Below are positions 35,417 through 64,000 of a stretch of DNA of 64,000 nt, one piece after another (positions within the stretch are counted from its first letter, which is position 1; every line of letters starts with the position of its first letter). A program made the translations under genes and the position numbers. The DNA is from Candidatus Gastranaerophilaceae bacterium (GTDB lineage Bacteria; Cyanobacteriota; Vampirovibrionia; Gastranaerophilales; Gastranaerophilaceae), in contig JBJEGN010000108.1 in the NCBI GenBank assembly GCA_051875105.1, positions 501 to 64,500 on the forward strand. The letters run 5' to 3'. The notes beneath the pieces were generated by a model. The model searched no databases, was not told the origin of the DNA, and saw only the letters and a list, made by a program, of their open reading frames with translations.

Positions 35417-35625
35417 AACAACGTATTTTCCCCTAATAAAAAGATAAAAAATGTGTATGAGGTTATAAGACACAAAACAAAGTAAAAACACTCCACGAAC
35501 AAATAAAAAGCTTGTTTAAAGCTAAAACCTCTTATATTACAAACTATTAAAGATGTGTTAAAAAGTTGCCAATATGCAAAATTATATGTATCCTAAACAA
35601 TAAGGGGTAGTATAGGAGAGTGAAC

Positions 35626-37299: not shown

Positions 37300-39888
37300 A
37301 TGACTTTTTTATATGAAAAATTAGACACTTTAAATTCTGCAGGCTTTTGTAAAGAATTTTCTAAATTTATTGAAGAAAATCTAACCACATCACTTGAACT
37401 GCGTGCATACCAGAAAAAAGCTTTTCAGAACTTTGTAACATACTACGAAAACGATAATTTGCGTAATCAAGATAAAAACTATCCTCTACAAGTTCTATTC
37501 CACATGGCAACAGGTAGTGGAAAAACTGTCATTATGGCAGGATTAATCATTTATTTGTATAGTCGTGGATATAGAAATTTTTTATTCTTTGTAAATTCAG
37601 ACAACATTATAAAAAAAACAAAAGAAAATTTCTTAAATGCAACATCATCAAAATATCTTTTCAATAATTCTATCAATATTGACGGAACTTATATAAAAAT
37701 CCGAGAAGTCGATAATTTTCAAGATACAAATGCAGATGATATAAATATATGTTTCACTACAATTCAAGGATTACATACAAAACTAACTACAATATATGAA
37801 AATAGTATTACTTTTGATGATTTCAGAGATAAAAAAGTGGTATTTATTGCAGATGAGGCTCATCACCTAAATGTAGAAACACGCAAAAAAGGGAAAACCA
37901 ATGTTAATGAACCAAATTGGGAGAATACAGTTGGTACTATTTTAAAATCAAATGTAGATAATGTTCTTTTGGAATTTACGGCTACATGTGATTTAGAAAA
38001 TCAAAACATCAAACAAGCTTATGAAAATAAAATTATTATGGATTATTCCCTTAAAAATTTTAGGAATGACAAATATTCAAAAGAAGTTGAAACCTTATCT
38101 GTTGGTTTAAATTTAGATGATAGAGTTATTCAAGCTGTTTTACTAAATCAATATAGGTTAAAACTCTTTCAGAAAAACAAACTAACAATAAAACCAGTTA
38201 TTATGTTTAAACATAAAACTGTAAAAGAAAGTTCGGACTACAAAAAACATTTCCATGAACTGATAACAAATTTAACCCCTCAAAGAATACAACACATCCG
38301 AGATTTATCTACTGCTCCAATTGTGCAAAAGATGTTTTCATTTTTTGATAAAGAAACAACTTTTGAAAATCTTATTTATGAGATAAAACAAGATTTTGCA
38401 GAGGACAAATGCGCTTCTGCTAATGAAGAAAAAGACGTCAAAAATTTACAAATACAAATCAACACTTTAGAAGATAGAAACAATCTTATAAGATGTGTTT
38501 TTGCTGTAAATAAGCTAAATGAGGGTTGGGATGTTCTAAATTTATTTGACATTGTAAGACTATATGAAACCCGAAGTGCAAAGCCTGACGGAACACCCGA
38601 AAAACAAACCATTCAAGAAGCCCAACTAATTGGAAGAGGTGCAAGATACTGTCCTTTTGTTTTACCCAATTATGAAGATAAATTCAGACGTAAATTTGAC
38701 AGCGATTTAAATAACGAATTACGAATTTGCGAAACTCTTTATTATCACTGCCAACATAATCCTTTATATATAAGAGAATTACGCAGAGCAATGCAAGATA
38801 TTGGATTACAAGATTCAAATACCAAAACAATTACATACGAACTTAAAGAAAGCTTCAAACAAACTGAAATATACAATAATGGTGTAGTTTTTGAAAATTC
38901 TCAACAAATAAAAAATTCTAATGATTTAACAGAAGATTTTCCTTACCTAAAAGATAAACCAATAAACATCCTACTTCCAAGTGGAGAAAGCACATCGATA
39001 GTTTTATTGGATGATACAAATAACAAAGATAAAGAATTAAGTGTTGCAAAATATTCAACTGAAATTCTTTTCAAAAATATTGATTATAGAATTTTACATA
39101 AAGCATTAAGAAAATACGATAACTTAGCCTTTAACAAATTAAAAGGAAAATACGAAAAATTACAATCTACAAAAGAATTTTTAACAGATGATAAGTACTT
39201 AGGTAACATCAAAATTATCATAAACTCTAAACAAAAAGAAGATGAAATCACTCAAAATCAATATTTTTATGCCACTAAAAACGTTCTTAATAAAGTGTCA
39301 ACATTAATTATGCAAAAAGACAATAAATATATTGGAACTAAGGATTTCAAAGCTAAAAAGCTAAAAGATATTATTACTGACAAAAAGATACAAATTGCGG
39401 TCAAAGAAAATGACAGTTGTGGGGTATCGCAAAAAGAATGTAATGATGAAGAACTAAGATTAGATTTGTCAAATAAGTCTTGGTTTGTATTTAAAGATAA
39501 TTTTGGAACAACTGAAGAAAAAGCTTTTGTTAAATATTTTGATAGCTTCATTAATAAAATCCAAGACAAATATGATGAAATTCATTTAATTAGAAATGAA
39601 CGTCAGCTAAAATTATTTTCTTTTGATGAAGGAAAACACTTTGAACCCGACTACCTTTTGATTCTTAATAAAAAAGATAGGGAACCTAAATATTACCATG
39701 TATTTATAGAAGTAAAAGGAACGATTTATTTGCAACCAGATAAATGGAAAGAAGATTTTTTGCTACAAATAGAAAAACTTGGAACAATCACAATTGCAGA
39801 TGATGAAAAATATAGAATTATAGGATTACCATTTTTTAATTTAGCAAAACGTTTTGCTCTTTTTGACACAGCTCTCAAAAAGTTTTAA
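37300..39888 (+). CDS. res: Type III restriction enzyme Res subunit (SF2 helicase plus PD-ExK nuclease)
   Basis: Motif I MATGSGKT, motif II ADEAHH, motif III FTAT, a QLIGRGAR motif VI-like segment, and a C-terminal EPDYLL...IEVKG nuclease motif. The start abuts the mod stop. Confidence 0.85.
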   Translation: MTFLYEKLDTLNSAGFCKEFSKFIEENLTTSLELRAYQKKAFQNFVTYYENDNLRNQDKNYPLQVLFHMATGSGKTVIMAGLIIYLYSRGYRNFLFFVNSDNIIKKTKENFLNATSSKYLFNNSINIDGTYIKIREVDNFQDTNADDINICFTTIQGLHTKLTTIYENSITFDDFRDKKVVFIADEAHHLNVETRKKGKTNVNEPNWENTVGTILKSNVDNVLLEFTATCDLENQNIKQAYENKIIMDYSLKNFRNDKYSKEVETLSVGLNLDDRVIQAVLLNQYRLKLFQKNKLTIKPVIMFKHKTVKESSDYKKHFHELITNLTPQRIQHIRDLSTAPIVQKMFSFFDKETTFENLIYEIKQDFAEDKCASANEEKDVKNLQIQINTLEDRNNLIRCVFAVNKLNEGWDVLNLFDIVRLYETRSAKPDGTPEKQTIQEAQLIGRGARYCPFVLPNYEDKFRRKFDSDLNNELRICETLYYHCQHNPLYIRELRRAMQDIGLQDSNTKTITYELKESFKQTEIYNNGVVFENSQQIKNSNDLTEDFPYLKDKPINILLPSGESTSIVLLDDTNNKDKELSVAKYSTEILFKNIDYRILHKALRKYDNLAFNKLKGKYEKLQSTKEFLTDDKYLGNIKIIINSKQKEDEITQNQYFYATKNVLNKVSTLIMQKDNKYIGTKDFKAKKLKDIITDKKIQIAVKENDSCGVSQKECNDEELRLDLSNKSWFVFKDNFGTTEEKAFVKYFDSFINKIQDKYDEIHLIRNERQLKLFSFDEGKHFEPDYLLILNKKDREPKYYHVFIEVKGTIYLQPDKWKEDFLLQIEKLGTITIADDEKYRIIGLPFFNLAKRFALFDTALKKF

Positions 39889-45850: not shown

Positions 45851-47557
45851 TTAATAAGGTTTTACAAAACACTGCATTGTATTTGTATCAGCTTTATCAG
45901 CTCTGTTGAAATATTGTGTTTCCCAATCAAGTTTATAATTATTCTTTATGAATTCATAAACAGGATTTCCATCGGAATAAACAAAGGGCTTTCCAAAATT
46001 TGTTAATCCATGTCCATGAGCAATCAAAATCATTTCATAGTCCGTATTCTTAATACTTTCTATAATTTTTTCAGCTCCGATAGCATCGTAATAAAGTCTG
46101 TCTGCCATTGGTAATTTATAATCCAAATCTCTTTGCGTTAAAAAATTTATTGCCATACCTTCAGGGAGTACAAGAATTTTAGATTTTGGAGAAGAGAATT
46201 GATTTATATAATTGATAGCATAAGTAAGAACATCAGCTTCTTTTCTCGGAATTTGAATCATTCCTCGAGGAGTTATAATAGGTGTATCATTTCTTGTTTG
46301 TTGCCATATTGTAAAAACTCCAAAAAATACGAGATAAACAATAAGCATATATTTTGTAAATTGTTTTAAATCATCTTTGCTTAAATATTTGTATTCAGGC
46401 AAATACTTAAATAATAAGACGACAAAAGCTAAAAGTAGTATATGAGCCGTATGTATTCCGTAAGTTGATAAAACCAAAGCCCAAAACATTCTTAAATTTA
46501 AGCCGAGAGCAGCAAGAATTAATATAAATAATGGCTTATCCGAATATATATCAGTTGCCTTAAAAAGTAAAACAGCCAACACTGTTAACGGTAAAAGCAA
46601 AGTATTCATACCAATATTTGTAAAATTAGCCAGACATGCAGAAACTGTAATTGCCAAAATTACCCAAAACGTACCTTTTGTCTTTTTAAACAAAAAATAA
46701 GAAACCAGGTATAATCCTATAGCTTTCGGAATATATTCAAAATACATATTAAAATCACCAATCCTGAATATTCCGCCTGTTTTGCTAATATGATAAATCA
46801 TTGAATCCGTTGTGAAGAATTTTCGCATAAAATTAAAAGAATTAATTAAATCATTAATTGAAACACCTTGTAAAAAAAGAATGCCAAAAGAAATCACCGG
46901 AAAAATTAACGATACTAAAATATTCATAATATTTTGTTTGATACTACAAGGTTTTACGACAAATGTAGTCAATAACAAAATAACCATGAAAATTCCAAAT
47001 TCACTTTTGCAAGCAACGGAAAAACCTGCAATAAGATAACAATACGGTAAAAATTTTACATTATCCGTTTTAAGATATTTTATTAATAAAAATAATGCAA
47101 TTAAATAAGCAGAAATTCCATACGTGAAAGAACAAGAGTACGGTAATTGTAAATTGAACAACGTTCCGTTAAAAGTAGCCCCCACAGCCGTTAAAACTGC
47201 AAATAAAAATGCGAAATTTTTGGATAGAAATTCTCTTGTTATAAAATACAAAGCAAAACAAGTAATTAAAGCATTAATTGTATTGAACATTTCCAATGTC
47301 TGAACATTAATACCAAACAGTTTGTAACCTATTGCATTTATCTGAAAAGCCAATGGAAAATAAATACATAAAATGTCTTTGTATAAAATTTTTCCATCAA
47401 GTATAGCTGCAGGGAAAAGCATTTCTCTGCCTTTATCCGTCAAAATACCGTTAAAACAACCATGAAACAATAAAGAACCGACAACAATCAATACGCTTAT
47501 TATCAATAGATTTATTAAATCAGTTTTCTCGTTATAAATATTTTTTATTTTTTCCAC
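45851..47557 (-). CDS. polytopic membrane protein, GT-C/ArnT-PMT-like glycosyltransferase (putative)
   Basis: 568 aa with more than 10 TM helices and a C-terminal soluble domain. The family assignment is from topology only. Confidence 0.5.
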   Translation of the reverse strand: MEKIKNIYNEKTDLINLLIISVLIVVGSLLFHGCFNGILTDKGREMLFPAAILDGKILYKDILCIYFPLAFQINAIGYKLFGINVQTLEMFNTINALITCFALYFITREFLSKNFAFLFAVLTAVGATFNGTLFNLQLPYSCSFTYGISAYLIALFLLIKYLKTDNVKFLPYCYLIAGFSVACKSEFGIFMVILLLTTFVVKPCSIKQNIMNILVSLIFPVISFGILFLQGVSINDLINSFNFMRKFFTTDSMIYHISKTGGIFRIGDFNMYFEYIPKAIGLYLVSYFLFKKTKGTFWVILAITVSACLANFTNIGMNTLLLPLTVLAVLLFKATDIYSDKPLFILILAALGLNLRMFWALVLSTYGIHTAHILLLAFVVLLFKYLPEYKYLSKDDLKQFTKYMLIVYLVFFGVFTIWQQTRNDTPIITPRGMIQIPRKEADVLTYAINYINQFSSPKSKILVLPEGMAINFLTQRDLDYKLPMADRLYYDAIGAEKIIESIKNTDYEMILIAHGHGLTNFGKPFVYSDGNPVYEFIKNNYKLDWETQYFNRADKADTNTMQCFVKPY

Positions 47558-47580
47558 AACTTTTTCCTATTCTATAAACA

Positions 47581-47610
47581 AAAAAAGCGGAACTTTACGT
47601 TCCGCCTTTT
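47581..47610 (-). terminator. intrinsic terminator after the GH57 gene
   Basis: GCGGAAC-TTTAC-GTTCCGC stem followed by TTTTTT on the minus strand. Confidence 0.7.
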
Positions 47611-47623
47611 AAAATTTCAAAGA

Positions 47624-49342
47624 CTATTTGAGTAATTGAACTTTTTCAACATCTTGAGGGTATTTGCCTTCCGGAATGGTTTTGTAAACTCTGTAATTGA
47701 TGTCTGCAAAGCAGTTATCAATATTTTCAATTTCCGCAAGTTTTTCTTCATTGATGCAGTTAGTTTCAATCATATCAGCGATAAGTTCAAATCTGTGAAC
47801 ATGTTCGTTGAAACGTTCTGTTGCATAATCTTTAGCCTGCCATGTTGTGATAAGGAACGGCCAGTCTGAACTTTGAAGCAAAAGGTTTTCCCTTGCGAGC
47901 TGAGCCAATGCTCTTTGCATAAGTTTATCTTCCGGCATTTTATCGTATTCATCAGCAATTGCAGACATTCTCTTTTCACAACCGTGAATAATAGGCCACA
48001 TCCATTCTGTTAAGTGGTTTTGCCATACATAGAAGTGTCCGCCTTGTCCCCAAGAGCTTTCAGGAATTTGGATAGCTTCTTTTGGCGGGTGTTTTTCGAT
48101 GTATTCACCTGCTGTCATCATTTCAACATCAGGAAGATATTGATTTAATTTTTTGATAACTTGCTTGATGAATTCAACACCTTCAAACCACCAGTGTCCA
48201 AATAATTCAGTATCGAATGATACCATTACCAAACCTTCTTTACCTTTTGCGTTTTTGTAATCATTGAGCAAGTGGTAAATCAATGTTGTATAGTGATCTG
48301 AATTCAAATTAATTTGTGACATAGCAAGAACAGGGTCATAAAGCATTTTTTCACCCAAACCTGCAGATGCAGAAGTAATTCTCCAATAGTGCATGCCCGA
48401 CTTGTCGTCTTTTTTGTGGAATTCTCTGTAGCAGCCATCACCGGGGTAACCATCAGCAGCTGACCAAACTTGATAGCCGGCTCTTTCGTTTCTGCCCATA
48501 ACAGCAACTTGAGCATCAGGAAGCCAATATGCAGAATATGTATCATATCCGGTTGCTTCTCTTTCCGGTAACGGAATGTATTCGATGTTACCGTAAACAC
48601 CTACGACACGTCTGTTACCGATTGAACTGCCGCCTTCGATAACGTGAGATTCAGTGAAGAAGTATTCAATATCGTTATTTTGGAGAGTCAATTCGATAGC
48701 CGGACGCCATTTTTTTTGACCGTCTTTTCCGATATATTCGTAACCTTGTCTGTATGCACATTCAGGCAACCAGCAGCCTTTAGCTTTTTTACCAAAAAGT
48801 TTTTTAGTTGTTTGAGAACCAACCGCAAATTGAGCATTGAGGTTTGCATCTGTTGCCAAAAGCGGTGAAAATCCATGCGTTGCACCTGATGTAGTAATTT
48901 CGATACAGCCTAAATCTTGGTATTTTTTGAAGGCTGAAATCAAATCTTTATTATATTTGTTGATAAAACTGTTTTTAATATGAGTAAACCAATCAAAATA
49001 ATATTTTGCTAAATATTTCAAATGTTGTGAGTTTGCAACATTCGGGTTCGGATATCTTTCCAAATCTTCGGAAACTTGTTTAATTCTTGAATCCAAATAT
49101 TCGACAAATCCGTTTTGTAAGTGTTCATCGATAAGTTGTTCAGCCAAAATCGGAGTAATACCAACCGTTAATTTAGCCTTAATACCTTCTTCTTCGTACA
49201 ATTCCGAAATAGCGTTTAATAACGGAACGTAAGTTTCGCACATACATTCATATAAGTTTTCTTCACCAAACGGCCACATTCCCGCTTTTCTGTAGTACGG
49301 CAAATGGCTGTGAAGCATGAAAACAAATTGTCCGACTGTCAT
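47624..49342 (-). CDS. GH57-family 1,4-alpha-glucan branching enzyme
   Basis: N-terminal FVFMLHSHLPYYRKAG, ~570 aa, and WWFEG and SSDWPF motifs typical of GH57 branching enzymes. Confidence 0.85.
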   Translation of the reverse strand: MTVGQFVFMLHSHLPYYRKAGMWPFGEENLYECMCETYVPLLNAISELYEEEGIKAKLTVGITPILAEQLIDEHLQNGFVEYLDSRIKQVSEDLERYPNPNVANSQHLKYLAKYYFDWFTHIKNSFINKYNKDLISAFKKYQDLGCIEITTSGATHGFSPLLATDANLNAQFAVGSQTTKKLFGKKAKGCWLPECAYRQGYEYIGKDGQKKWRPAIELTLQNNDIEYFFTESHVIEGGSSIGNRRVVGVYGNIEYIPLPEREATGYDTYSAYWLPDAQVAVMGRNERAGYQVWSAADGYPGDGCYREFHKKDDKSGMHYWRITSASAGLGEKMLYDPVLAMSQINLNSDHYTTLIYHLLNDYKNAKGKEGLVMVSFDTELFGHWWFEGVEFIKQVIKKLNQYLPDVEMMTAGEYIEKHPPKEAIQIPESSWGQGGHFYVWQNHLTEWMWPIIHGCEKRMSAIADEYDKMPEDKLMQRALAQLARENLLLQSSDWPFLITTWQAKDYATERFNEHVHRFELIADMIETNCINEEKLAEIENIDNCFADINYRVYKTIPEGKYPQDVEKVQLLK

Positions 49343-53800: not shown

Positions 53801-53871
53801 GAATTCTTTATAAATAGGCAATTTCAAATCTTGTTCTGTTTTAACAAGAACAAGTGTAAGGAATGTGCTTA

Positions 53872-55041
53872 ATGAATATCAATTTAATAAATGCAAATAG
53901 TTTAGAATTTTCTATAAAAAACACTCAACAACAAAAAAAAGTTGTTGCATCAAAGCCGGATTTTTCAAATTCAACAGAAAAGTTTGAAAAATCTTTTGAA
54001 AAATATTCAAAAGCTCAATACACTTATTTTCAAGGAATTAATTCTGTTAATTTTGGAGGAGCAACTACAAATTTCAGAATAAAAAAACTTGAAGATGTGC
54101 CATGCCCGTGTTGCGGACAAATAATGCTTACAGAAAACAGTATTGACAAGCATGTTAACAGATTGAACAAAGCAAAGGGCAATAAGCTTGCGGATAGAAT
54201 TTATAATGAAGAAGCAAAGTTTTTGAGAAGTAACCAAAGAGCAGCTGCATTTATTATTGCAGATTGTGCCAAAGGAACAGAGTTAAGCATTACGCAAGCG
54301 GCACGCAAAGCTAATGAAAATTTACCAAGCAAGTTTATTTCATATTGCAAAGATGTTCTTATGAATGCAGCTATTTTAGCTGATGAACAGTCAGGTGAAA
54401 ATTCTGAATTAGGACAAATTCTTTTTGATAAAGCAGATAAACTTGAAGATGCCCAAAGTTTCTATAGACCTGATTTAACAGAAGAGTTATCTGCTTTTCG
54501 AGCAGTTATTGGAGATGAAAAATACAACAAAATTGAAGATATTTTGATGACATTACCTTTGAATTTTAAAGAAGTTAATCGTGTGATGTCAGAAGCTAAA
54601 AATTCATCGCCAACGGACTTTGCCAAGCTTCTGTTTAAACCGTCGCTTGCTACGGCAGAACACATTAAGCCAAAATCTTTAGGCGGTGAAAATTCCCCAT
54701 CGAATTTTCTATCGGAATGTGCAGGCTGCAATAATCCAAGAAGTAGTTTGTCTTATGTTGATTGGATAAAAGTTCATCCTGAATTTACCAGAAATCCGCA
54801 AACTTATATTGAACATGTTGAAAAACGTATTGTAAACGGTGAACTTCCGCCGGTTTATGATTCTTATCCGATTGATGTGAAAGAAACTTTGACTAATGAA
54901 TCTCAAGGACATATTAAACTTACAGTTTTGAATAAAGAAAAAATTCATGAACTTAAAGAAGCAAAGAAAAACGGTCAAGACGTTAATATATCTGAAGAAA
55001 CCGCTAAGGTCAAAAATAAGGATGCAGAACAGGCTGAATAA
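53872..55041 (+). CDS. HNH/His-Me-finger-like protein, paralog B
   Basis: DVPCPCCG plus TAEHIKPKSLGGENSPSNFLSECAGCNNPR. Collinear similarity to paralog A throughout. I prefer the ATG at 53872 (AAGGA 9 nt upstream) over the one at 53863. Confidence 0.6.
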   Translation: MNINLINANSLEFSIKNTQQQKKVVASKPDFSNSTEKFEKSFEKYSKAQYTYFQGINSVNFGGATTNFRIKKLEDVPCPCCGQIMLTENSIDKHVNRLNKAKGNKLADRIYNEEAKFLRSNQRAAAFIIADCAKGTELSITQAARKANENLPSKFISYCKDVLMNAAILADEQSGENSELGQILFDKADKLEDAQSFYRPDLTEELSAFRAVIGDEKYNKIEDILMTLPLNFKEVNRVMSEAKNSSPTDFAKLLFKPSLATAEHIKPKSLGGENSPSNFLSECAGCNNPRSSLSYVDWIKVHPEFTRNPQTYIEHVEKRIVNGELPPVYDSYPIDVKETLTNESQGHIKLTVLNKEKIHELKEAKKNGQDVNISEETAKVKNKDAEQAE

Positions 55042-55142: not shown

Positions 55143-56144
55143 ATGAAATATATCAGCTGCGAACTTTTGGAACACAGTGTCTGTTTTATGCGGGATTTAA
55201 TTTTAACCTGCTGTTATTCACCTGCGGACAGAAGATATAAAGTTATGGATGATATTGTTCTTGATAGAAATTTTGATGGGATAAATGTTAATATAGATGA
55301 TATTATTCAGCAAACTAAGAAATTAAAAGAAAATGCTAAAAAAGGATTTCTCCCGGAATCTTGTAAAAATTGCTATCACTTACAAGAAAAAGAGTGGGAT
55401 AATGAAGATTATTACTCTAATATTTATATTTCGCAGTTTGAAAATTGTAATGCCGATTGTATATATTGTACATCTTACGGTGGAATTCACACAAATACAG
55501 ATAAAAAACCTTATAAAATAATTCCTCTTTTAAAAGAACTTGATAAAAAAGGCCTATTAAAAAATGAAATAGAAATCCATGTCGGCGGCGGAGAACCTCT
55601 TTTATATGACGAATTTGAAGATATTATAAAACATTTTTGCTTTACAGGCAGAGCAAAAATGTTTGCTGTTCCTACTTCAGGGATTGAATATTCTGAAATA
55701 CTTGCAAAAGGCATGACTTTAGATAACAAGATTTCCTTTGTTATGCCTATCATATCGATTGATTCCGGTTCACCTGAAATTTATAAAAAAATTAAAAAAG
55801 TTGATAAATATTACAATGTTGTTGAAAATATTCAAAAATATGTTCAACATTGTGATTATAAAACACAGGTTAAATATATTGTTATACCTCATATAAACGA
55901 TAATATCGAAGAATTTACAAAATTTCTTGATATGTGTCAATCCGTTGGGGTTTCAAATATCGGATTGGATATTGATGCAAATTATGCAAGGAAGTTTGAT
56001 TTCAATATTGATACTGTATTGATTAATTTAATTAATGACATGACAGTTTTAGCTAAAGAAAGAGGTTTCTATACAGAATTATTTATGTTTTTTAAACATG
56101 TTTTAAGTTATTATAAAAATCAAAAGAAAGATTGTGAGAAATAA
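55143..56144 (+). CDS. radical SAM enzyme with an N-terminal Cys-rich (SPASM/twitch-like) domain
   Basis: CNADCIYC (CX3CX2C) and the GGGEP SAM-binding motif. N-terminal C...CC and CKNC cysteines lie upstream of the core. Confidence 0.75.
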   Translation: MKYISCELLEHSVCFMRDLILTCCYSPADRRYKVMDDIVLDRNFDGINVNIDDIIQQTKKLKENAKKGFLPESCKNCYHLQEKEWDNEDYYSNIYISQFENCNADCIYCTSYGGIHTNTDKKPYKIIPLLKELDKKGLLKNEIEIHVGGGEPLLYDEFEDIIKHFCFTGRAKMFAVPTSGIEYSEILAKGMTLDNKISFVMPIISIDSGSPEIYKKIKKVDKYYNVVENIQKYVQHCDYKTQVKYIVIPHINDNIEEFTKFLDMCQSVGVSNIGLDIDANYARKFDFNIDTVLINLINDMTVLAKERGFYTELFMFFKHVLSYYKNQKKDCEK

Positions 56145-56147
56145 TAT

Positions 56148-57575
56148 ATGCTTTTCAATTCAATAGAGTTTCTATTTATTTTTTTACCAATAGTTTTTGT
56201 TATTTATTTTCTGTTAAATAATTTTAAATTTTATACTGCTTCAAAAATTTGGTTAATTATTGCATCTTTGTTTTTCTACGCTATTTACAAATTTAATTAT
56301 TTACACATAATACTTTCTTCTGTGATTTTTAATTTCTTTATGGGAAAAATTCTTCAAAAAAATATTTCAGAATTCGTGAATAAGAAAATAGTTTTAGCTT
56401 TTACTTTGGTTTGTAATTTATTACTTTTATGCTATTTCAAATATTTTGATTTTTTGATAGAAATATTAAATACAAATTTGCACACACAATTTAACACAAT
56501 GAATCTGCTTTTACCTTTGGGAATAAGTTTCTTTACATTCCAACAAATTTCCTATATTGTGGATTGCTATAAGGGTGAAATTAAAGATACAAATTTTATA
56601 GATTATATTTTATTTGTAACATTTTTCCCTCAATTGGTTGCAGGACCGATTATCCAGTACCGGGAAATTGTCCCTCAATTTCAAGATAATTCTAAAAAAA
56701 ATATTAATTCTCAAAATATTTCAGCCGGATTCTTCTTAATCACAATAGGACTTGCTAAAAAAGTTCTGCTGGCTGATAATTTCGCTCCGTTTATTTCTCA
56801 AACATTAAATGGTCTTTCTAATCTGGATTTTCTAAATTCCTGGTTTTTGGCTTTATCAATAGGTAGTCAGGGATATTTCGATTTTTCCGGATATTGCGAT
56901 ATGGCTCTTGGTATTGCATTACTTTTCAATATAACTATTTTGCCAAATTTCAATTCCCCATACCAATCTGTTGATATTTCCGATTTTTGGAGAAGATGGC
57001 ATATTTCTCTCGGAAAATTCATGAAATATTATGTCTATATTCCTCTTGGCGGAAGTAGAGTCGGGACTCTTAAAACATATAGAAACCTCTTTTTCGTTTT
57101 TTTATTAATCGGTGTTTGGCATGGAGCTAATATTCCTTGTATTATGTACGGTGTCGTAAATGGTATACTCGTATGCTTTAACAAATTTTGGAAATCTCTA
57201 AAAATAGAAATGAATAAATATCTCGCAATTGCTATTACTTATGCAACAATGATTTTTATTTGTCCTCTCGTACTCGTTAAATCCTTCCATGAGTTTTTAA
57301 AAGTATTTTATGCTATGACGGGCATGCAAACTGTATTTAAACTTCCTTCTGTATCAGAATTCTCATTAGTTTTCAACAATGGTTCTGCGTTGAACATATT
57401 TCTCATTTCAATATCTTTAATTATTGTTTTATTTGTTCAAAATTCTAACGAATTATGTGAAAAATATTTAAAAGGAAACAAAGAGATAATTTCGTTAGCT
57501 GTAATATTGTTATTTATAATTTCAACTCTATGTATAAACCGTTGCCCAAATGAATTCATATATTTTCAGTTCTAA
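56148..57575 (+). CDS. MBOAT-family membrane O-acyltransferase (AlgI/DltB-like)
   Basis: 475 aa, polytopic, with FWRRWHISL and GVWHGAN conserved His motifs. Starts 4 nt after the radical SAM gene. Confidence 0.87.
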   Translation: MLFNSIEFLFIFLPIVFVIYFLLNNFKFYTASKIWLIIASLFFYAIYKFNYLHIILSSVIFNFFMGKILQKNISEFVNKKIVLAFTLVCNLLLLCYFKYFDFLIEILNTNLHTQFNTMNLLLPLGISFFTFQQISYIVDCYKGEIKDTNFIDYILFVTFFPQLVAGPIIQYREIVPQFQDNSKKNINSQNISAGFFLITIGLAKKVLLADNFAPFISQTLNGLSNLDFLNSWFLALSIGSQGYFDFSGYCDMALGIALLFNITILPNFNSPYQSVDISDFWRRWHISLGKFMKYYVYIPLGGSRVGTLKTYRNLFFVFLLIGVWHGANIPCIMYGVVNGILVCFNKFWKSLKIEMNKYLAIAITYATMIFICPLVLVKSFHEFLKVFYAMTGMQTVFKLPSVSEFSLVFNNGSALNIFLISISLIIVLFVQNSNELCEKYLKGNKEIISLAVILLFIISTLCINRCPNEFIYFQF

Positions 57576-57610: not shown

Positions 57611-57958
57611 TTATTCAATAATTTTTATTTTAAAATTTTGAATAGGTTGTTTTTGAATTATTTTTTTCTGATTTTCTAAAGTATTTTTTATCGCAAAAAT
57701 CCAACCATTATCAGGATTTATAAATAGGAAAAAAGCTGCTTGGCTTTCTACAATTTTTCCAACATCATCAATTAATAGTTCACCCTTCGGAGAAAGCTCA
57801 AATACAGTAAAAGACAAAGGTTCTGAAATTGTACTGTCTATATAACCATCAAATTTTATATTATAAACCTTCGATGTATCTTTTAAAATTGGTTTACCTT
57901 TAAATGTCGTTATCCATTTATAAAGTGCAGTTAAAAGATGGTCATTATTCTGTTTCAT
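57611..57958 (-). CDS. hypothetical protein
   Basis: 115-aa ORF overlapping the 3' end of the upstream GGDEF/HD-GYP gene by 14 nt. Confidence 0.45.
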   Translation of the reverse strand: MKQNNDHLLTALYKWITTFKGKPILKDTSKVYNIKFDGYIDSTISEPLSFTVFELSPKGELLIDDVGKIVESQAAFFLFINPDNGWIFAIKNTLENQKKIIQKQPIQNFKIKIIE

Positions 57959-59792
57959 CGTGGCTGACCAATTCTATGAATTTTTCTACAAGGTCTTTAC
58001 TCCATTTTGAGCCTGCTCCCTGATGAATTATCTCTATTGCCTTTTGGATGTCAAAAGCTTTGCGATATGGTCTGTCTTGAGTCAATGCATAATAAGCATC
58101 AACAAGAAGAATAATTTGCGAACTTAACGGAATATCTTTTCCGGAAGATTTACCGGGATAACCGGTTCCATCCCAATTTTCGTGGTGTTTTTCTATAATT
58201 GGGATAACATCTTGGATGCTGCTTATCGGACGCAAAATATCTCTTGCCGCAATTACCGGATGCGATTTTATCATATTCTTTTCTTCTTCCGTTAAAGCAT
58301 CTTCCTTTTTGAAAATATTTTCCGGTAACATAATATTTCCGATATCATAAAGCAATACCGCAATTTTTAATTTGTCGATTTCTTCCTTTGGCATATCCAT
58401 TTTTTTTGCAAGTTTTACTGCCAAGAGAAGTTTTGATTTTGTAAATCCTGATTGATAAGTTGAGTTATATGATTGAGTGATAATGTCTACAACCGAGTAA
58501 ATTGTTTCTTTTGCATCTTTTTCTGAGGCGGAAACAGAACTCAATCGAGCCGTAATATCACCGGCAAGTTCTGCCGGTATTTGAACTCTTTGTTTTGAAA
58601 CAATATCCAAAAATGCGTTGACCGCAATTTTTTGCCAATTTGTTTCTTTTTGTTTTTGTGTAAGTTGAACTTGATTTCGACCGTTTATTTTGGCTCGATA
58701 CATAGCTTGATCGGCAAGTTCTGTTAAATCATAAACATTTTTACTGTGCTCCAAAAAGGTTGCAACACCAATACTTGCGGTAACATTCCCTATTTTCTCA
58801 AGAGGTGTTGCCTCAATTGCCGCTCGCATTCTTTCTGCTGCAATCATAGCTCCGTATGAATCAATTCCAGGCAATAAAACATTGAACTCTTCTCCGCCTA
58901 TTCTTGCAGGAACGTCTATTGAACGAGCTCTTGATTTTAACACGTCTGAAATTGCTTTTATTGCAATATCTCCATACTGGTGACCGTATGTATCATTAAT
59001 CGTTTTTAAATGGTCAAGATCAAGTGACACTAAGGAAAAAGGTTGTCCTAATCTCAATGCTCTTTCTGCTTCTCGATTGATATTTTCTTCAAAATATCTT
59101 CTGTTATACAAACCTGTTAATGGATCTGTAACTGCTTGTTTACGAACTTCCTCAAATAAACCGGCTATTGTTATTGCAAGTTCTATCTGATTGGCAAATA
59201 GAGTTAAAAAATTAATTTCTGTATCTCGTATGTTCTCTCTGTCAGAAAATACCAACATACAACCAAATTCTTTCGATTCTGTCATACTTTCATTTTGTTT
59301 GCGATATAAAGGTACAACAATAACTGATTTACTCGGTGTATTTTTTATGATGTTTCTTACGTAATCGTGTGATAAATCCGCTAAAATACTGAAAAAAACA
59401 TTCTCTATGTCACTTGAACTCTGTATTTGTTTTTCTTTAAGAGCTTTTGCAAGGATAAAATTTTCACTGTACGGAATTCTATATTCCTTTATTTTTATAA
59501 AATCAATTTCTTTTAATGATTTTTCTAAAATTTTGCTTTCAGCATGGGCTTTTACCTGAAAATATAATCCGTTTTTGTCTGATTCTTTCGTTAAAACAAG
59601 AGTGTTTAAATAGCCCATTTGCGTTTGCAAAGAATTTACAATTGTGTCTAAAACACTCGTCAAAGGCTCTGATGAATTCATCATCTCCCAAATATTGCTC
59701 ATTGTGAGCATTGTATTATTTGCTTTGTTAAGTTCTTCTGTTTTTTCTTTAATTTCTTGCTCTAATTCGAGGTTTCTTTTGTATACGTCCAT
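57945..59792 (-). CDS. GAF-GGDEF-HD-GYP signalling protein (c-di-GMP synthase/phosphodiesterase)
   Basis: DPLTGLYNRR and GGEEF motifs, then an HD-GYP domain with LLYDIG and HHENWDGTGYP. Confidence 0.85.
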   Translation of the reverse strand: MDVYKRNLELEQEIKEKTEELNKANNTMLTMSNIWEMMNSSEPLTSVLDTIVNSLQTQMGYLNTLVLTKESDKNGLYFQVKAHAESKILEKSLKEIDFIKIKEYRIPYSENFILAKALKEKQIQSSSDIENVFFSILADLSHDYVRNIIKNTPSKSVIVVPLYRKQNESMTESKEFGCMLVFSDRENIRDTEINFLTLFANQIELAITIAGLFEEVRKQAVTDPLTGLYNRRYFEENINREAERALRLGQPFSLVSLDLDHLKTINDTYGHQYGDIAIKAISDVLKSRARSIDVPARIGGEEFNVLLPGIDSYGAMIAAERMRAAIEATPLEKIGNVTASIGVATFLEHSKNVYDLTELADQAMYRAKINGRNQVQLTQKQKETNWQKIAVNAFLDIVSKQRVQIPAELAGDITARLSSVSASEKDAKETIYSVVDIITQSYNSTYQSGFTKSKLLLAVKLAKKMDMPKEEIDKLKIAVLLYDIGNIMLPENIFKKEDALTEEEKNMIKSHPVIAARDILRPISSIQDVIPIIEKHHENWDGTGYPGKSSGKDIPLSSQIILLVDAYYALTQDRPYRKAFDIQKAIEIIHQGAGSKWSKDLVEKFIELVSHDETE

Positions 59793-59910: not shown

Positions 59911-60960
59911 TTACCCAATTTGTAATACTTTATTCAAAAGTTTTACGATTTTTTGCGAATTTATAAAATTGATACATTTGTTAATTTCTTTATTAAGGCA
60001 TTTTTTCTTCATACAAGGCGAGCATTCACAATCTGATTGAACAGAATAATATTTTTCACCAAAAGGTGCAGTTCTTTCTGCTGAGGTTGCGAAAAACATC
60101 GTAATAACAAAAGGTTTACCAATTGCCCAAGCAATATGTGCTGAACCGGAATCAGGAGAAATAACAACGTCTGCATATTTAAAAACTTCTGCTAATTCGA
60201 CAAGATTTGTTAATCCTCGCAAATTTATTATATCTTTTTCGCTAAACTCAGATAGTATTGCAACACTCAAACCCTTGTCATTAGTTGTTCCTGTATAAAT
60301 TATATTGACCTTACCGATAAATTCTTTTATAATTTCTCGCCAGCTATTTACAGTCCAATGTTTGTTATCCCAAGTTGTTTCCGGAGAAATAACAATTGTT
60401 TTTTTATTTTTATCCAAATCTTTTAAAAGTTCCTTAACTTTCAATTTTGTATCAGATTTTATTTCAGGTAGAACAAATTCGATATTTCCTGTATCACAGC
60501 CTAAATATTTTGCAATTTCAAGATTTCTTTTTACAACATGGTAATGAATATCAAATTGTTTTCGATTAGTTTTAATTATTTCATTTGCAAAAATGCCGGA
60601 AAATTCCCTGCCGTCAGACAAGGTTATTTTTCTTTTTCCTCCTGAAAAACCCATAATAAAAGCACTTTTCAAAAGCTGTTGAGTATCTATTACTATATCG
60701 TATTTTTCTTTTCTAATATTTTTTATTAATGTGAAAAAATCTCTTATTCCGTCTGTTTTCTTATGAATTACATAAACTTTATTCAAAAGAGGATTATTCA
60801 ATACAAATTGTGCTGCTTTATCTTCTACAACCCAATCAATTTGGGCATCCGGATACTTGTTTCTTAAGGCTTTTGCAAGCGGAAGTGTGTGTATCGTATC
60901 GCCTAATGCACTTCTTCTTATTATTAATATTTTTTTTGATATGTTATTCATTGTATTCAT
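59911..60960 (-). CDS. glycosyltransferase family 9 (LPS heptosyltransferase-like)
   Basis: ILIIRRSALGDTIHTLPLAKAL N-terminus and DSGSAHIAWA motif typical of GT9. Confidence 0.85.
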   Translation of the reverse strand: MNTMNNISKKILIIRRSALGDTIHTLPLAKALRNKYPDAQIDWVVEDKAAQFVLNNPLLNKVYVIHKKTDGIRDFFTLIKNIRKEKYDIVIDTQQLLKSAFIMGFSGGKRKITLSDGREFSGIFANEIIKTNRKQFDIHYHVVKRNLEIAKYLGCDTGNIEFVLPEIKSDTKLKVKELLKDLDKNKKTIVISPETTWDNKHWTVNSWREIIKEFIGKVNIIYTGTTNDKGLSVAILSEFSEKDIINLRGLTNLVELAEVFKYADVVISPDSGSAHIAWAIGKPFVITMFFATSAERTAPFGEKYYSVQSDCECSPCMKKKCLNKEINKCINFINSQKIVKLLNKVLQIG

Positions 60961-61079: not shown

Positions 61080-61319
61080 ATGAACAGAGAGATGACAGAA
61101 AGAACAAAATCGGCTATTAATTTATGTAAAGTAAAATTGGAAAATTTAAAATCAAGATTAGATGAATCAAGAGAAGCAAATATTGTTTTTAATCGTATTT
61201 TAATCGAAAAAGCTGTCCTTGAAAGTTCAATGAAAAAAAGACCTTTTGACTTTTTGTTGAAATTTAAACAAAAATTTGTTAAAATCGAGAACAAAAGAAT
61301 ATGTGACTTCTTTAAATAG
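61080..61319 (+). CDS. questionable small ORF (79 aa) upstream of the radical SAM trio
   Basis: Open frame ending 8 nt before the first radical SAM gene. The RBS is weak and an equally long antisense ORF exists, so this may be non-coding leader sequence. Confidence 0.25.
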   Translation: MNREMTERTKSAINLCKVKLENLKSRLDESREANIVFNRILIEKAVLESSMKKRPFDFLLKFKQKFVKIENKRICDFFK

Positions 61320-61327
61320 GTGAAATA

Positions 61328-62356
61328 ATGCTTTTTTGCAAAAGACCTTTTGAAAATTTTGAAATGAACGGTAATTTTGAGGTTTTTACTTGCTGCCCGA
61401 ATTATTTCAAAGAAAGTCAAATTCTCGGAAATCTTTTGCAAGACTCACCGGAAAACATTTGGAATTCCAAAGTCGCTCAAAATTTAAGGCAGCATATTTT
61501 AAACGGTGATTTTTCTTTATGTAACAAGGAAAGATGTTGTAACTACCCTTCAATAGAAGATGTTTCTGAAGAAGAATTAAAAAAATATTCCGTAATTTGT
61601 ACCCAAAAGCCCAAAAATGTTTGGTTGTACTATGACGGATGTTGTAATGCAAGGTGTACAATTTGTCGTGATGAATTTCATGGTAATAATGAAGCTTGGG
61701 CAGATTTTGTTAATGATGTTGCAGATGAAAAAATTTTACCTTTTTTAAAAAATGCAGAAAAAATTTATTTAAACGGAGCCGGAGAAGTTTTCTTCTCTAT
61801 GCATACTAAATATTTGATAAAAAGAGCAAATGAACTTTACCCTAACTTAAAATATGATTTAGTCACAAACGGATTTTTATGCAACAGAGAGAATATAAAA
61901 AGTTTAGGATTAGAAAATAAAATTGAAAGGCTTACTATTTCAATTCATGCCGCAACGGAAGAAACTCATAAAAAAATCTTTCGAACAGGATCTTTACAAA
62001 CTGTTTTAAAAAACCTTAAAGAATTAAAAGAAATGAAAGATAATGGAGAAATTCCTTTTATCCAGTTGATTTTTGTTGTTACATCAGTAAATTACAAAGA
62101 AATGCCTGCCTTTGTACGATTGGCACAAGAGTTGAACATGGTTGCTGTTTTTTGTGACTATGTAGCTTATGATTACACAGAGATGGGTAAAAATGAAAAG
62201 GAATACAATATTATAAAACCCGAACATCCTTTACATAATGCTTTGCTGGAAGTTTTGAAATCAGATGAAATTTCAGACGGAAAACATTGTTTTTTAAATC
62301 CTATAATCCTGTCACTAAGAAATAAAGCTTTTTCTGAGCAAGAAAAGAAGGTGTAA
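61328..62356 (+). CDS. radical SAM enzyme, N-terminal SPASM/twitch-like domain, paralog 1
   Basis: FCKRPFENFEMNGNFEVFTCCP...ENIWNS...LCNKERCC, followed by CNARCTIC (CX3CX2C) and NGAGEVF. Confidence 0.78.
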   Translation: MLFCKRPFENFEMNGNFEVFTCCPNYFKESQILGNLLQDSPENIWNSKVAQNLRQHILNGDFSLCNKERCCNYPSIEDVSEEELKKYSVICTQKPKNVWLYYDGCCNARCTICRDEFHGNNEAWADFVNDVADEKILPFLKNAEKIYLNGAGEVFFSMHTKYLIKRANELYPNLKYDLVTNGFLCNRENIKSLGLENKIERLTISIHAATEETHKKIFRTGSLQTVLKNLKELKEMKDNGEIPFIQLIFVVTSVNYKEMPAFVRLAQELNMVAVFCDYVAYDYTEMGKNEKEYNIIKPEHPLHNALLEVLKSDEISDGKHCFLNPIILSLRNKAFSEQEKKV

Positions 62357-62358
62357 TA

Positions 62359-63387
62359 ATGCATTTTTGCAAAAGACCTTTTGAAAATTTTGAAATTAAT
62401 TCAGCCGGAGAAGTTTATACATGTTGTCCATCATACATAAACAATTATAGTATAGGTAACATTTGGTATAATTCTGCAGTTGAAATATGGAATTCTGAAA
62501 AAATTCAAAATTTGAGAAAAAGAATTTTGAATAATGACTATTCCTTGTGTAACAAGGAAAGTTGTTATTGTTACCAATATAGAGAAGATATTTTTGAAGA
62601 AGAAATTTTACAAAACTATTCTTCAATTTACAATAAACACCCCAAAAATATTTGGCTTTACTATGATGAAATTTGTAATGCAAAATGTGGAATGTGTAGA
62701 AATGATTTTTGCAGAAACGACCCTGAAAAAGTTGAAAAATTAAATAAAATTGCAGAAGAAAAAATTCTTCCTTTGCTACAAGGTGCAGAAACAATTTTTC
62801 TCAATGGTGGCGGAGAATTATTTTATTCTGAACATTCAAAATATTTGGTAAAACGTATAAATGAGCTTTATAATAAAGTTAAATTTGAAATAACAACAAA
62901 CGGAATTCTTTGTAATAGAAAAAATATTTTTGATTTACATTTAGAAAATAAGATAAAAACTCTTTGGATATCTATACATTCAGCAACAGAAGAAACTTAT
63001 AAAAGGATATTTAACGTTAATTGTTTTCAAAATGTGATGAACAATCTTGCAGAAATAAAGCAAATGAAAGACGAAAAATTCTTTGATAATGTTCAGCTTG
63101 TATTTGTAGTAAGTTCGTTAAATTTCAGAGAAATGCCGGATTTCGTTGATATCGCAAAGAAATTTAATATGAAAGCTTCTTTTCGAGAATATGTTCCTTG
63201 GCTTCATACAGAAATGGGGCAAAATGGAGAAAAATATACCGTTCTATCCGAAAAAAACCCAATGCACAAAGAACTTTTAGAGGTATTGAAAGATAAAAGA
63301 CTAAAAACTTCAGAATATTGCGTGTTTAATTCAATGATAGATGAATTAAGAAAAAAAGCCCAAAGTGAAGATGGAGTAGTTCTATGA
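62359..63387 (+). CDS. radical SAM enzyme, N-terminal SPASM/twitch-like domain, paralog 2
   Basis: FCKRPFENFEINSAGEVYTCCP...EIWNS...LCNKESCYC, then CNAKCGMC and NGGGELF. Starts 2 nt after paralog 1. Confidence 0.78.
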   Translation: MHFCKRPFENFEINSAGEVYTCCPSYINNYSIGNIWYNSAVEIWNSEKIQNLRKRILNNDYSLCNKESCYCYQYREDIFEEEILQNYSSIYNKHPKNIWLYYDEICNAKCGMCRNDFCRNDPEKVEKLNKIAEEKILPLLQGAETIFLNGGGELFYSEHSKYLVKRINELYNKVKFEITTNGILCNRKNIFDLHLENKIKTLWISIHSATEETYKRIFNVNCFQNVMNNLAEIKQMKDEKFFDNVQLVFVVSSLNFREMPDFVDIAKKFNMKASFREYVPWLHTEMGQNGEKYTVLSEKNPMHKELLEVLKDKRLKTSEYCVFNSMIDELRKKAQSEDGVVL

Positions 63388-64000
63388 TTTTTTGTAAAAA
63401 ACCGTTTGAGCATGTTGAAATAGACGGAAGAATGGACTGTTTTCTGTGCTGTCCACCTGTGACAAATTATCTTTCTGTAGGAAATATTGAAAATAAAGAT
63501 ATTAACGAGGTTTGGAATTCTGAAACTGCACAAAAGATTAGAGCAAGTATTTTAGATGGCTCTTTTAAGTATTGTAATCTTGGAAAATGCACTGAATATC
63601 CAAAGTTTAAAGATAAAAATGTTACAGAAATTTCATCAGAGTATAAGATTCAAATGGAAAAAATGCCGAAAGAAATTTACCTCGATTACGATTATTTCTG
63701 TAATGCAAGATGTATTTTTTGTCGAGATAACTGGTATGTAAACAATAAAAATGATCTTGATTTGTTTAACAGAATTGCCGATAATAAAATTTTACCATTG
63801 TTAAAAGATGCTGAAATTGTTTATTTGAATGGTTTTGGGGAAGTTTTTTACTCCGAGCATGCAAAATATTTTATAAACAAAGTGAGCGAACTGTACCCTA
63901 AAATAGTTTTTAATATCAGTTCAAACGGAATTTTATGCACAAAAGAAAATATGGTTAAAATGGGATTACTCGGCAAAATAAATGATTTAACAATTTCTGT
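63384..64000 (+). CDS. radical SAM enzyme, N-terminal SPASM/twitch-like domain, paralog 3 (partial, runs off the window)
   Basis: Not in the ORF track because there is no stop within the window. Manual translation gives MIFCKKPFEHVEIDGRMDCFLCCP...EVWNS...CNLGKC...CNARCIFC...NGFGEVF. ATGA overlap with paralog 2. Confidence 0.72.
   Translation, partial: MIFCKKPFEHVEIDGRMDCFLCCPPVTNYLSVGNIENKDINEVWNSETAQKIRASILDGSFKYCNLGKCTEYPKFKDKNVTEISSEYKIQMEKMPKEIYLDYDYFCNARCIFCRDNWYVNNKNDLDLFNRIADNKILPLLKDAEIVYLNGFGEVFYSEHAKYFINKVSELYPKIVFNISSNGILCTKENMVKMGLLGKINDLTIS

Follow-up and report, generated by a model that had tools for sequence, protein, structure and literature searches.

Three tandem radical-SAM paralogs with an N-terminal twitch domain in a Gastranaerophilaceae genome, members of a large reverse-order family with a possible role in glycan tailoring

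Introduction

BtrN, the 2-deoxy-scyllo-inosamine dehydrogenase of the butirosin pathway, is the prototype twitch enzyme among the radical S-adenosylmethionine (SAM) proteins (PDB 4M7T/4M7S). A full SPASM domain holds two auxiliary clusters and has the seven-Cys motif CX9-15GX4C...CX2CX5CX3C...C, whereas the twitch domain is a shortened version of this fold with about four Cys for a single auxiliary [4Fe-4S] cluster. The substrates of two further radical-SAM enzymes, DesII and BlsE, are sugars linked to a nucleotide or forming part of a nucleoside; to our knowledge, neither enzyme has an N-terminal auxiliary-cluster domain. SPASM and twitch domains have been described as C-terminal extensions of the radical-SAM core (PMC9012708). 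In BtrN, which oxidises an aminocyclitol, four Cys residues ligate the auxiliary [4Fe-4S] cluster, the proposed electron acceptor in a two-electron oxidation (PMC9012708). Here, we analysed 64,000 nucleotides (nt) of contig JBJEGN010000108.1 from a Candidatus Gastranaerophilaceae bacterium (GCA_051875105.1). At the 3' end of this stretch, referred to as the window, lie three tandem radical-SAM genes whose products carry a twitch-like Cys domain in front of the radical-SAM core. An initial annotation of the window, made by a model from the letters and a list of open reading frames (ORFs), had drawn attention to this arrangement.

Architecture of the three paralogs

The three genes (Table 1) were tightly packed on the plus strand, with a gap of 2 nt after the stop codon of paralog 1 and an ATGA overlap of paralogs 2 and 3 at 63384-63387. 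A Shine-Dalgarno-like aggtg/ggag was present 5' of all three starts. In pairwise BLASTP, paralog 1 was 52% identical to paralog 2 (E value 8e-126) and paralog 3 was 43% identical to paralog 2 (E 2e-58), and an identity of 45% between paralogs 1 and 3 was obtained from a MAFFT alignment. The motifs FCK(R/K)PFE, CCP, GN(L/I) and (I/V)WNS were found in all three proteins, and the Cys motifs and the SAM-binding, GGE-like motifs quoted in the initial annotation were located in each of them. The ORFs, the short gap, the overlap and the level of identity thus confirmed its claim of three coupled plus-strand paralogs; the relationship is real and far beyond chance. Together with their orthologs, the window paralogs clustered as a separate subfamily.

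The N-terminal region of each paralog, about 100 amino acids (aa) long, matched the Pfam SPASM family (PF13186) above its gathering score of 21.5 bits. The scores were respectively 29.7 bits in paralog 1 (aa 4-66), 44.4 bits in paralog 2 (aa 4-69) and 33.4 bits in paralog 3 (aa 4-69). Radical_SAM (PF04055, threshold 29.5 bits) was matched at about aa 105-265 in both complete paralogs, with 43.6 bits in paralog 1 (aa 106-265) and 34.1 bits in paralog 2. Paralog 3 is truncated by the window end; its radical-SAM motifs were there, but the Pfam scan gave no PF04055 match for it. When a profile built from an alignment of 46 family members (A2) was compared with the sequences in PDB, BtrN was the best match (E 8e-14), and the two proteins aligned in swapped order. 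Positions 4-83 of A2 corresponded to BtrN 184-261 (domain E 3e-6), and positions 93-218 corresponded to BtrN 20-145.

The AlphaFold2 model of paralog 2 had a predicted local distance difference test score (pLDDT) of 93.2 and a predicted template modelling (TM) score of 0.89. A Foldseek search with the whole model returned only matches to the core, among them viperin, SuiB, BlsE, DesII, SkfB, NifB and MoaA, because a sequential aligner is blind to a permutation. The N-terminal domain was therefore modelled separately. The first 99 residues of paralog 2 were predicted with a pLDDT of 95.0, and the top Foldseek matches of this isolated domain were the BtrN structures 4M7S and 4M7T (probability 0.99, TM score 0.54). 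All 13 of its 13 matches were SPASM/twitch enzymes, with anSME, SuiB, CteB and PqqE following BtrN. Pfam, the swapped-order match to BtrN and the search with the isolated domain hence agree that the Cys domain is N-terminal to the core, as had been proposed.

In the 46-sequence alignment, the only conserved N-terminal Cys residues were C4, C22, C23, C64 and C69, and the conserved Cys residues of the core were C106, C110 and C113. The CX2CX5CX3C block of full SPASM domains was found neither in the paralogs nor in this alignment. TIGR04085, the model for full SPASM, stayed below its cutoff in paralog 2 (17.5 vs 27 bits) and did not match the other two paralogs. Judged from these sequence features, the N-terminal domain is most simply classed as a one-cluster twitch domain with four to five conserved Cys. 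The SPASM/twitch label given at the outset therefore holds for twitch and fails for full SPASM. A single auxiliary cluster would be expected, as in BtrN, because only four to five Cys are conserved and the CX2CX5CX3C block is absent. The domain order in the paralogs is a permutation of the BtrN order. It is also a real departure from the characterised SPASM/twitch enzymes, since these domains have been described there as C-terminal extensions (PMC9012708).

Both halves of the paralogs find their counterpart in BtrN, and the two share one predicted auxiliary-cluster site of about four Cys. However, the twitch domain is C-terminal in BtrN and N-terminal in the window paralogs; the BtrN chains in PDB have 269-270 aa, whereas the paralogs have about 340 aa; and the last Cys pair is C-x2-C in BtrN and C-x4-C in the paralogs. 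Unlike BtrN, the paralogs are not accompanied by a butirosin or aminoglycoside gene context at the window locus. A second comparison is with the SPASM maturases (anSME, AlbA, PqqE, SuiB, CteB and SkfB), with which the paralogs have in common the Pfam SPASM match and a SPASM-group core, and which turn up among the Foldseek matches. By contrast with the maturases, the paralogs have a single cluster site in an N-terminal domain, and the window locus is without a recognition element (RRE) for ribosomally synthesized and post-translationally modified peptides (RiPPs), a precursor peptide or an exporter. DesII and BlsE were among the top structural matches of the whole protein, with a TM score of about 0.5, but these matches covered only the core at 15-18% identity.

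A sister family of NF033640

The permuted architecture, which had initially been presented as the finding, is not new to the databases. NCBIfam model NF033640 ('N_Twi_rSAM, twitch domain-containing radical SAM protein') represents the same architecture, and thousands of members can be collected. NF033640 aligned with aa 2-331 of paralog 2 at 55.9 bits and scored 37.3 and 38.2 bits on paralogs 1 and 3. A family model thus covers nearly the full length of these proteins, but the scores of 37-56 bits fall below its curated cutoff of 170 bits. Of 23 family members, 22 matched NF033640 at E<=0.001 (best E 1.5e-20), and none of the 23 attained the cutoff. Among 10 further representatives, seven scored 60-83 bits and three had no match at E<=1e-15. 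Because the alignment to NF033640 is full-length yet the scores are far under 170 bits, the window proteins are assigned, by profile comparison, to an unnamed sister family with the same build.

An exhaustive search of 1.84 billion representatives with a hidden Markov model of the family gave 2,377 clusters (50% identity) at E<=1e-30. Of the best 150 clusters (E<=4e-85), almost all matched nearly the entire profile. When 27 representatives from other organisms were scanned with Pfam, SPASM preceded Radical_SAM in 26, and no SPASM match was obtained in the remaining one (P0057). The name given by the Prokaryotic Genome Annotation Pipeline to a Paracoccus homolog was merely 'radical SAM protein'. 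In the literature searched, there was no paper on the N-terminal SPASM/twitch architecture or on NF033640. Nothing relevant was found there on radical SAM in Melainabacteria or Gastranaerophilales, nor on SPASM/twitch in connection with polysaccharides or glycosyltransferases.

Some polypeptides (P0056, P0057, P0064, P0082 and P0124) contained two to four separate matches to the family profile, and two SPASM and two Radical_SAM matches were seen with Pfam in P0056. These proteins are at least partial duplications of the unit and would correspond, within one polypeptide, to the tandem genes in the window.

The family was heavily expanded in Gastranaerophilales. When GTDB species representatives were searched with a 13-sequence alignment in a pattern-limited scan, 65 loci were returned. 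Most of them belonged to Gastranaerophilales, a genome often had several, and tandem arrays of two to four family genes were common. Much larger arrays were also present. About 14 radical-SAM genes encoding proteins of about 330 aa were counted at L006 (GCA_015152515.1 SUTV01000003.1), which is an unusually dense radical-SAM cluster, and 7-15 family matches, again with radical-SAM genes of about 330 aa, were recorded at L057 and L058.

Adjacent hetero-pairs of subfamilies 9 and 10 or 5 and 13 recurred in differing genomic positions, surrounded by housekeeping genes (L019-L024, L027, L031-L033, L036, L042 and L053), which suggests that the partners work as pairs. Five loci (L026, L029, L033, L035 and L039) come from records titled 'uncultured Muribaculaceae'. 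The close relatives of their genes are in Gastranaerophilales loci, including an LrgAB-adjacent copy, and these records may be mis-binned or mislabelled metagenome-assembled genomes.

Putative function in glycan tailoring

Family members occurred fused to glycosyltransferases of families GT2 and GT1, class-I and FkbM methyltransferases, sulfotransferases, polysaccharide pyruvyl transferase and a B12 radical-SAM domain. In the natural fusion P0076, an N-twitch radical-SAM unit was combined with both GT2 and GT1; its likely substrate is what the glycosyltransferase makes. The array at L006 was flanked by genes for a B12-binding radical-SAM protein, an epimerase/dehydratase, a DegT aminotransferase and a GT2. 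At L013, the family gene overlapped a gene for a 1071-aa GT1, after which genes for a GT2 and a methyltransferase came next, and the homolog on a Paracoccus plasmid (L085) lay among a GT25, a second glycosyltransferase and a nucleotide-sugar dehydrogenase. L006, L013 and L085 are glycan clusters. In the window, the trio itself has a glycosyltransferase neighbour, of family GT9. On account of the fusion partners, these three clusters and the carbohydrate-like aminocyclitol substrate of BtrN, we favour glycan or sugar tailoring as the function of the trio. With modest confidence, we judge it probable, and likelier than peptide tailoring. The initial annotation had left the choice between a peptide (RiPP-like) system and an envelope glycan or lipid system; glycan is the better supported of the two, and the RiPP-like system found no support.

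In such a pathway, each enzyme would bind a SAM-cleaving [4Fe-4S] cluster on the CX3CX2C motif, and the N-terminal domain would hold another [4Fe-4S] cluster, with Cys as all its ligands. A 5'-deoxyadenosyl radical would be formed and would abstract an H atom from a sugar carbon. The sugar could be a nucleotide-sugar or a lipid-linked or polymerised surface glycan, such as lipopolysaccharide, capsule or flagellar glycan. The auxiliary cluster would then accept an electron from the substrate radical, and the sugar would be oxidised by two electrons to a keto-sugar in the manner of BtrN. Diverged paralogs may act on different positions or on different sugars, and gain and loss of copies between strains may diversify the surface glycan. 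By analogy, a BtrN-like two-electron oxidation would be the first choice for the chemistry, with epimerisation or dehydration less likely.

Several observations weigh against a role in glycan tailoring. Most Gastranaerophilales loci were situated amid housekeeping genes (NusB/FtsY, NusA/RimP, SIMPL) and had no adjacent glycan genes. At the window locus itself, the link to glycans is weak, because the neighbouring gene for a glycosyltransferase of the heptosyltransferase family (GT9) is divergently transcribed and is retained at L083, which lacks the radical-SAM genes. Moreover, the NCBIfam models closest to the core were those of cofactor or protein maturases, TIGR04317 (W_rSAM_matur, E 2e-20) and TIGR04311 (rSAM_Geo_metal), with scores far below the cutoffs.

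These core matches would suit enzymes that mature a protein or a cofactor (like anSME or the tungsten-cofactor and metalloenzyme maturases), acting on an unlinked protein target, e.g., by residue oxidation, as would the many Gastranaerophilales copies that are orphans among housekeeping genes. However, the scores were only 63-95 bits against cutoffs of 380-400 bits, and the generic core alone was aligned. Neither a sulfatase nor a tungsten enzyme nor any further candidate target was found near the L001 and L005 loci, and 5-15 diverged paralogs per genome are hard to square with a single target. We regard a maturase function as quite unlikely, and glycan tailoring remains the preferred assignment.

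The locus in relatives and the upstream 79-aa ORF

The closest relatives came from assembled gut metagenomes that bear the label Candidatus Melainabacteria or Gastranaerophilales. Within this clade, a GGDEF-HD gene and the GT9 gene lay on the minus strand, an ORF of 79 aa followed by one to three radical-SAM paralogs lay on the plus strand, and a convergent fliR-fliQ-fliP-fliO-fliN block completed the locus on the 3' side. The divergent GT9 gene, and the upstream radical-SAM gene with its acyltransferase neighbour described below, had all been named in the initial annotation and were verified by ORFs and Pfam. The GT9 gene was syntenic in L001, L005, L010 and L083; its product scored 145 bits with TIGR02193, below the cutoff of 185 bits.

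Orthologs of paralog 1 in L001 and L010 were 79-80% identical. The ortholog of paralog 2 (P0001), on a syntenic contig (L001/L016), was 89% identical. The ortholog of paralog 3 (P0015, 335 aa) was 65% identical, with the convergent fliR 17 nt downstream. The number of radical-SAM copies at the locus was three in the window, two in L001 and L010, one in L005 and zero in L081 and L083. Since the arrays of relatives run directly into the convergent fliR, paralog 3 is most probably the last gene of the operon, which would end about 135 codons past the window, and a longer operon, as suggested initially, is unlikely.

The 79-aa ORF was 96% identical in L001 and 77% in L005. Its homologs formed 23 clusters with 62-96% identity, confined to Gastranaerophilaceae-type genomes. 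The protein is helical-looking and had no Pfam match; its two conserved Cys are C16 and the one in the C-terminal ICD(F/Y)F. The ORF always adjoined the divergent GT9 gene, the GGDEF-HD gene or both, with or without downstream radical-SAM genes. At L081 and L083, it was found without radical-SAM genes and still beside GGDEF-HD or GT9. It is probably in the same transcript as the radical-SAM genes, and it is not their obligate partner.

A RiPP maturase system has a co-occurring precursor gene, usually with an RRE plus a peptidase or an exporter. In a system of this kind, the 79-aa product would be the precursor, and the three twitch enzymes would add thioether or C-C crosslinks to it, like AlbA, SkfB and CteB. 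The ORF is on the same strand and stops 8 nt before paralog 1, it is 77% identical alongside a radical-SAM gene of only 49% identity, and it contains two Cys, including that of the conserved C-terminal motif; weak NCBIfam similarity of the enzymes to sactipeptide maturases points the same way. However, the 79-aa ORF was rejected as a precursor peptide because it occurs in the absence of any radical-SAM gene (L081 and L083). It is also conserved over its whole length, unlike a precursor made of leader plus core. No conserved small ORF preceded family members at other loci, and a screen for small ORFs around all arrays yielded, besides the 79-aa ORF, only low-complexity, out-of-frame artefacts. 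Pfam scans of the window and L001 revealed no RRE/PqqD, peptidase or ABC exporter in the locus, and the family is found fused to glycan enzymes. The RiPP-like system that had initially been considered is thus very improbable, and we keep to glycan tailoring.

The upstream radical-SAM enzyme and its MBOAT neighbour

A radical-SAM enzyme of 333 aa from a second family is encoded upstream of the trio (Table 1). The Pfam scan of this protein gave Radical_SAM alone and no SPASM, and comparison of profile with single sequence aligned the core alone. In an alignment of 14 homologs (A6), C6, C23, C74 and C77 were invariant and preceded C102/C106/C109. When A2 and A6 were compared with hhalign, they aligned over the full length, including the N-terminal domain (probability 99%, E 6.5e-18). 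A build like that of the trio is supported by this profile-profile alignment and the four invariant N-terminal Cys, in keeping with the fourth enzyme of the same build that the initial annotation had recognised. Both families with an N-terminal Cys domain were mixed in the arrays at L006, L057 and L058.

A gene for a membrane O-acyltransferase of the MBOAT family starts 3 nt past the upstream radical-SAM gene. Its product scored 145 bits with the DltB model TIGR04091 (cutoff 375 bits). The MBOAT gene was absent at the syntenic position in the 89%-identical relative L001 (compared region L001 4260-5601); it is a strain-level gene insertion or deletion, and the acyltransferase first noted beside the fourth enzyme is not a conserved neighbour.

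The coupling of the second-family enzyme to an MBOAT acyltransferase bears on whether lipid A, a membrane lipid or a diffusible metabolite is tailored, rather than a glycan. The best PDB sequence match of the second family was the tetraether lipid synthase GDGT-MAS (E 1.7e-9), GT9 enzymes act on the lipid A-core, and the substrate of BtrN is a small aminocyclitol, all of which would agree with a lipid or small-molecule substrate. However, the MBOAT gene is missing in the closest relative, the match to GDGT-MAS was limited to the generic core, and the fusion partners (GT2, GT1, pyruvyl- and sulfotransferases) indicate polysaccharides. Lipid or small-molecule tailoring is therefore considered unlikely, and the glycan assignment is retained.

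Other genes in the window

The features of the locus and other genes of the window are listed in Table 1. The GAF-GGDEF-HD (HD_5) gene and the gene of a 115-aa protein, which starts within its last 14 nt and has no Pfam match, were kept as a pair in L001, L005 and L081. The two members of a type III restriction-modification pair are a 559-aa mod methylase and an 862-aa res helicase-nuclease. Beside a GH57 glucan branching enzyme lies a membrane glycosyltransferase of 567 aa, which is PMT_2/ArnT-like. A protein of 392 aa gave a short HNH-like match only (PF14279, 27.1 bits, just below cutoff) and was kept in the syntenic relative L001.

Table 1. Coordinates of features in the 64,000-nt window; residue numbers refer to the encoded proteins.
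Feature	Position (nt)	Strand	Details
Type III restriction-modification pair	35620-39888	+	
PMT_2/ArnT-like glycosyltransferase and GH57 enzyme	45851-49342	-	
392-aa protein	53863-55041	+	
Second-family radical-SAM enzyme	55143-56144	+	333 aa
Second-family enzyme, N-terminal 4-Cys domain			C6, C23, C74-x2-C77
Second-family enzyme, CNADCIYC			aa 102-109
MBOAT-family membrane O-acyltransferase	56148-57575	+	PF03062, E 1.3e-34
115-aa ORF	57611-57958	-	
GAF-GGDEF-HD (HD_5) gene	57945-59792	-	
GT9 glycosyltransferase, heptosyltransferase family	59911-60960	-	PF01075, E 2.5e-43
Conserved 79-aa ORF	61080-61319	+	
Radical-SAM paralog 1	61328-62356	+	342 aa, complete ORF
Paralog 1, twitch-like domain			aa 4-71; Cys 4, 22, 23, 65, 70, 71
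Paralog 1, CX3CX2C (CNARCTIC)	61643-61666	+	aa 106-113; GAGE motif from aa 150
Radical-SAM paralog 2	62359-63387	+	342 aa, complete ORF
Paralog 2, twitch-like domain			aa 4-71; Cys 4, 22, 23, 64, 69, 71
Paralog 2, CX3CX2C (CNAKCGMC)	62674-62697	+	aa 106-113; GGGE motif from aa 150
Radical-SAM paralog 3	63384-64000	+	205 codons to the window end, no stop
Paralog 3, twitch-like domain			Cys 4, 19, 22, 23, 64, 69
Paralog 3, CX3CX2C (CNARCIFC)	63699-63722	+	aa 106-113; GFGE motif from aa 150

Implications

Beyond the trio, the N-terminal-twitch family could represent an unrecognised polysaccharide-tailoring class that carries out C-H oxidation, epimerisation or crosslinking on surface glycans. In gut Melainabacteria, it would be amplified to 5-15 diverged, strain-variable copies per genome, serving glycan or antigenic diversity. 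We offer this wider view tentatively, as a possibility about which we are more doubtful than convinced. No member of this reverse-order family, thousands strong, has been studied so far, and its present annotation is 'radical SAM protein' only. Thousands of genes would gain an annotation from a dedicated model together with the biochemical characterisation of one member. If the substrates are glycans, radical C-H chemistry would be added to the known polysaccharide-tailoring reactions, and the family would account in part for how diverse the surfaces of uncultured gut Melainabacteria are.

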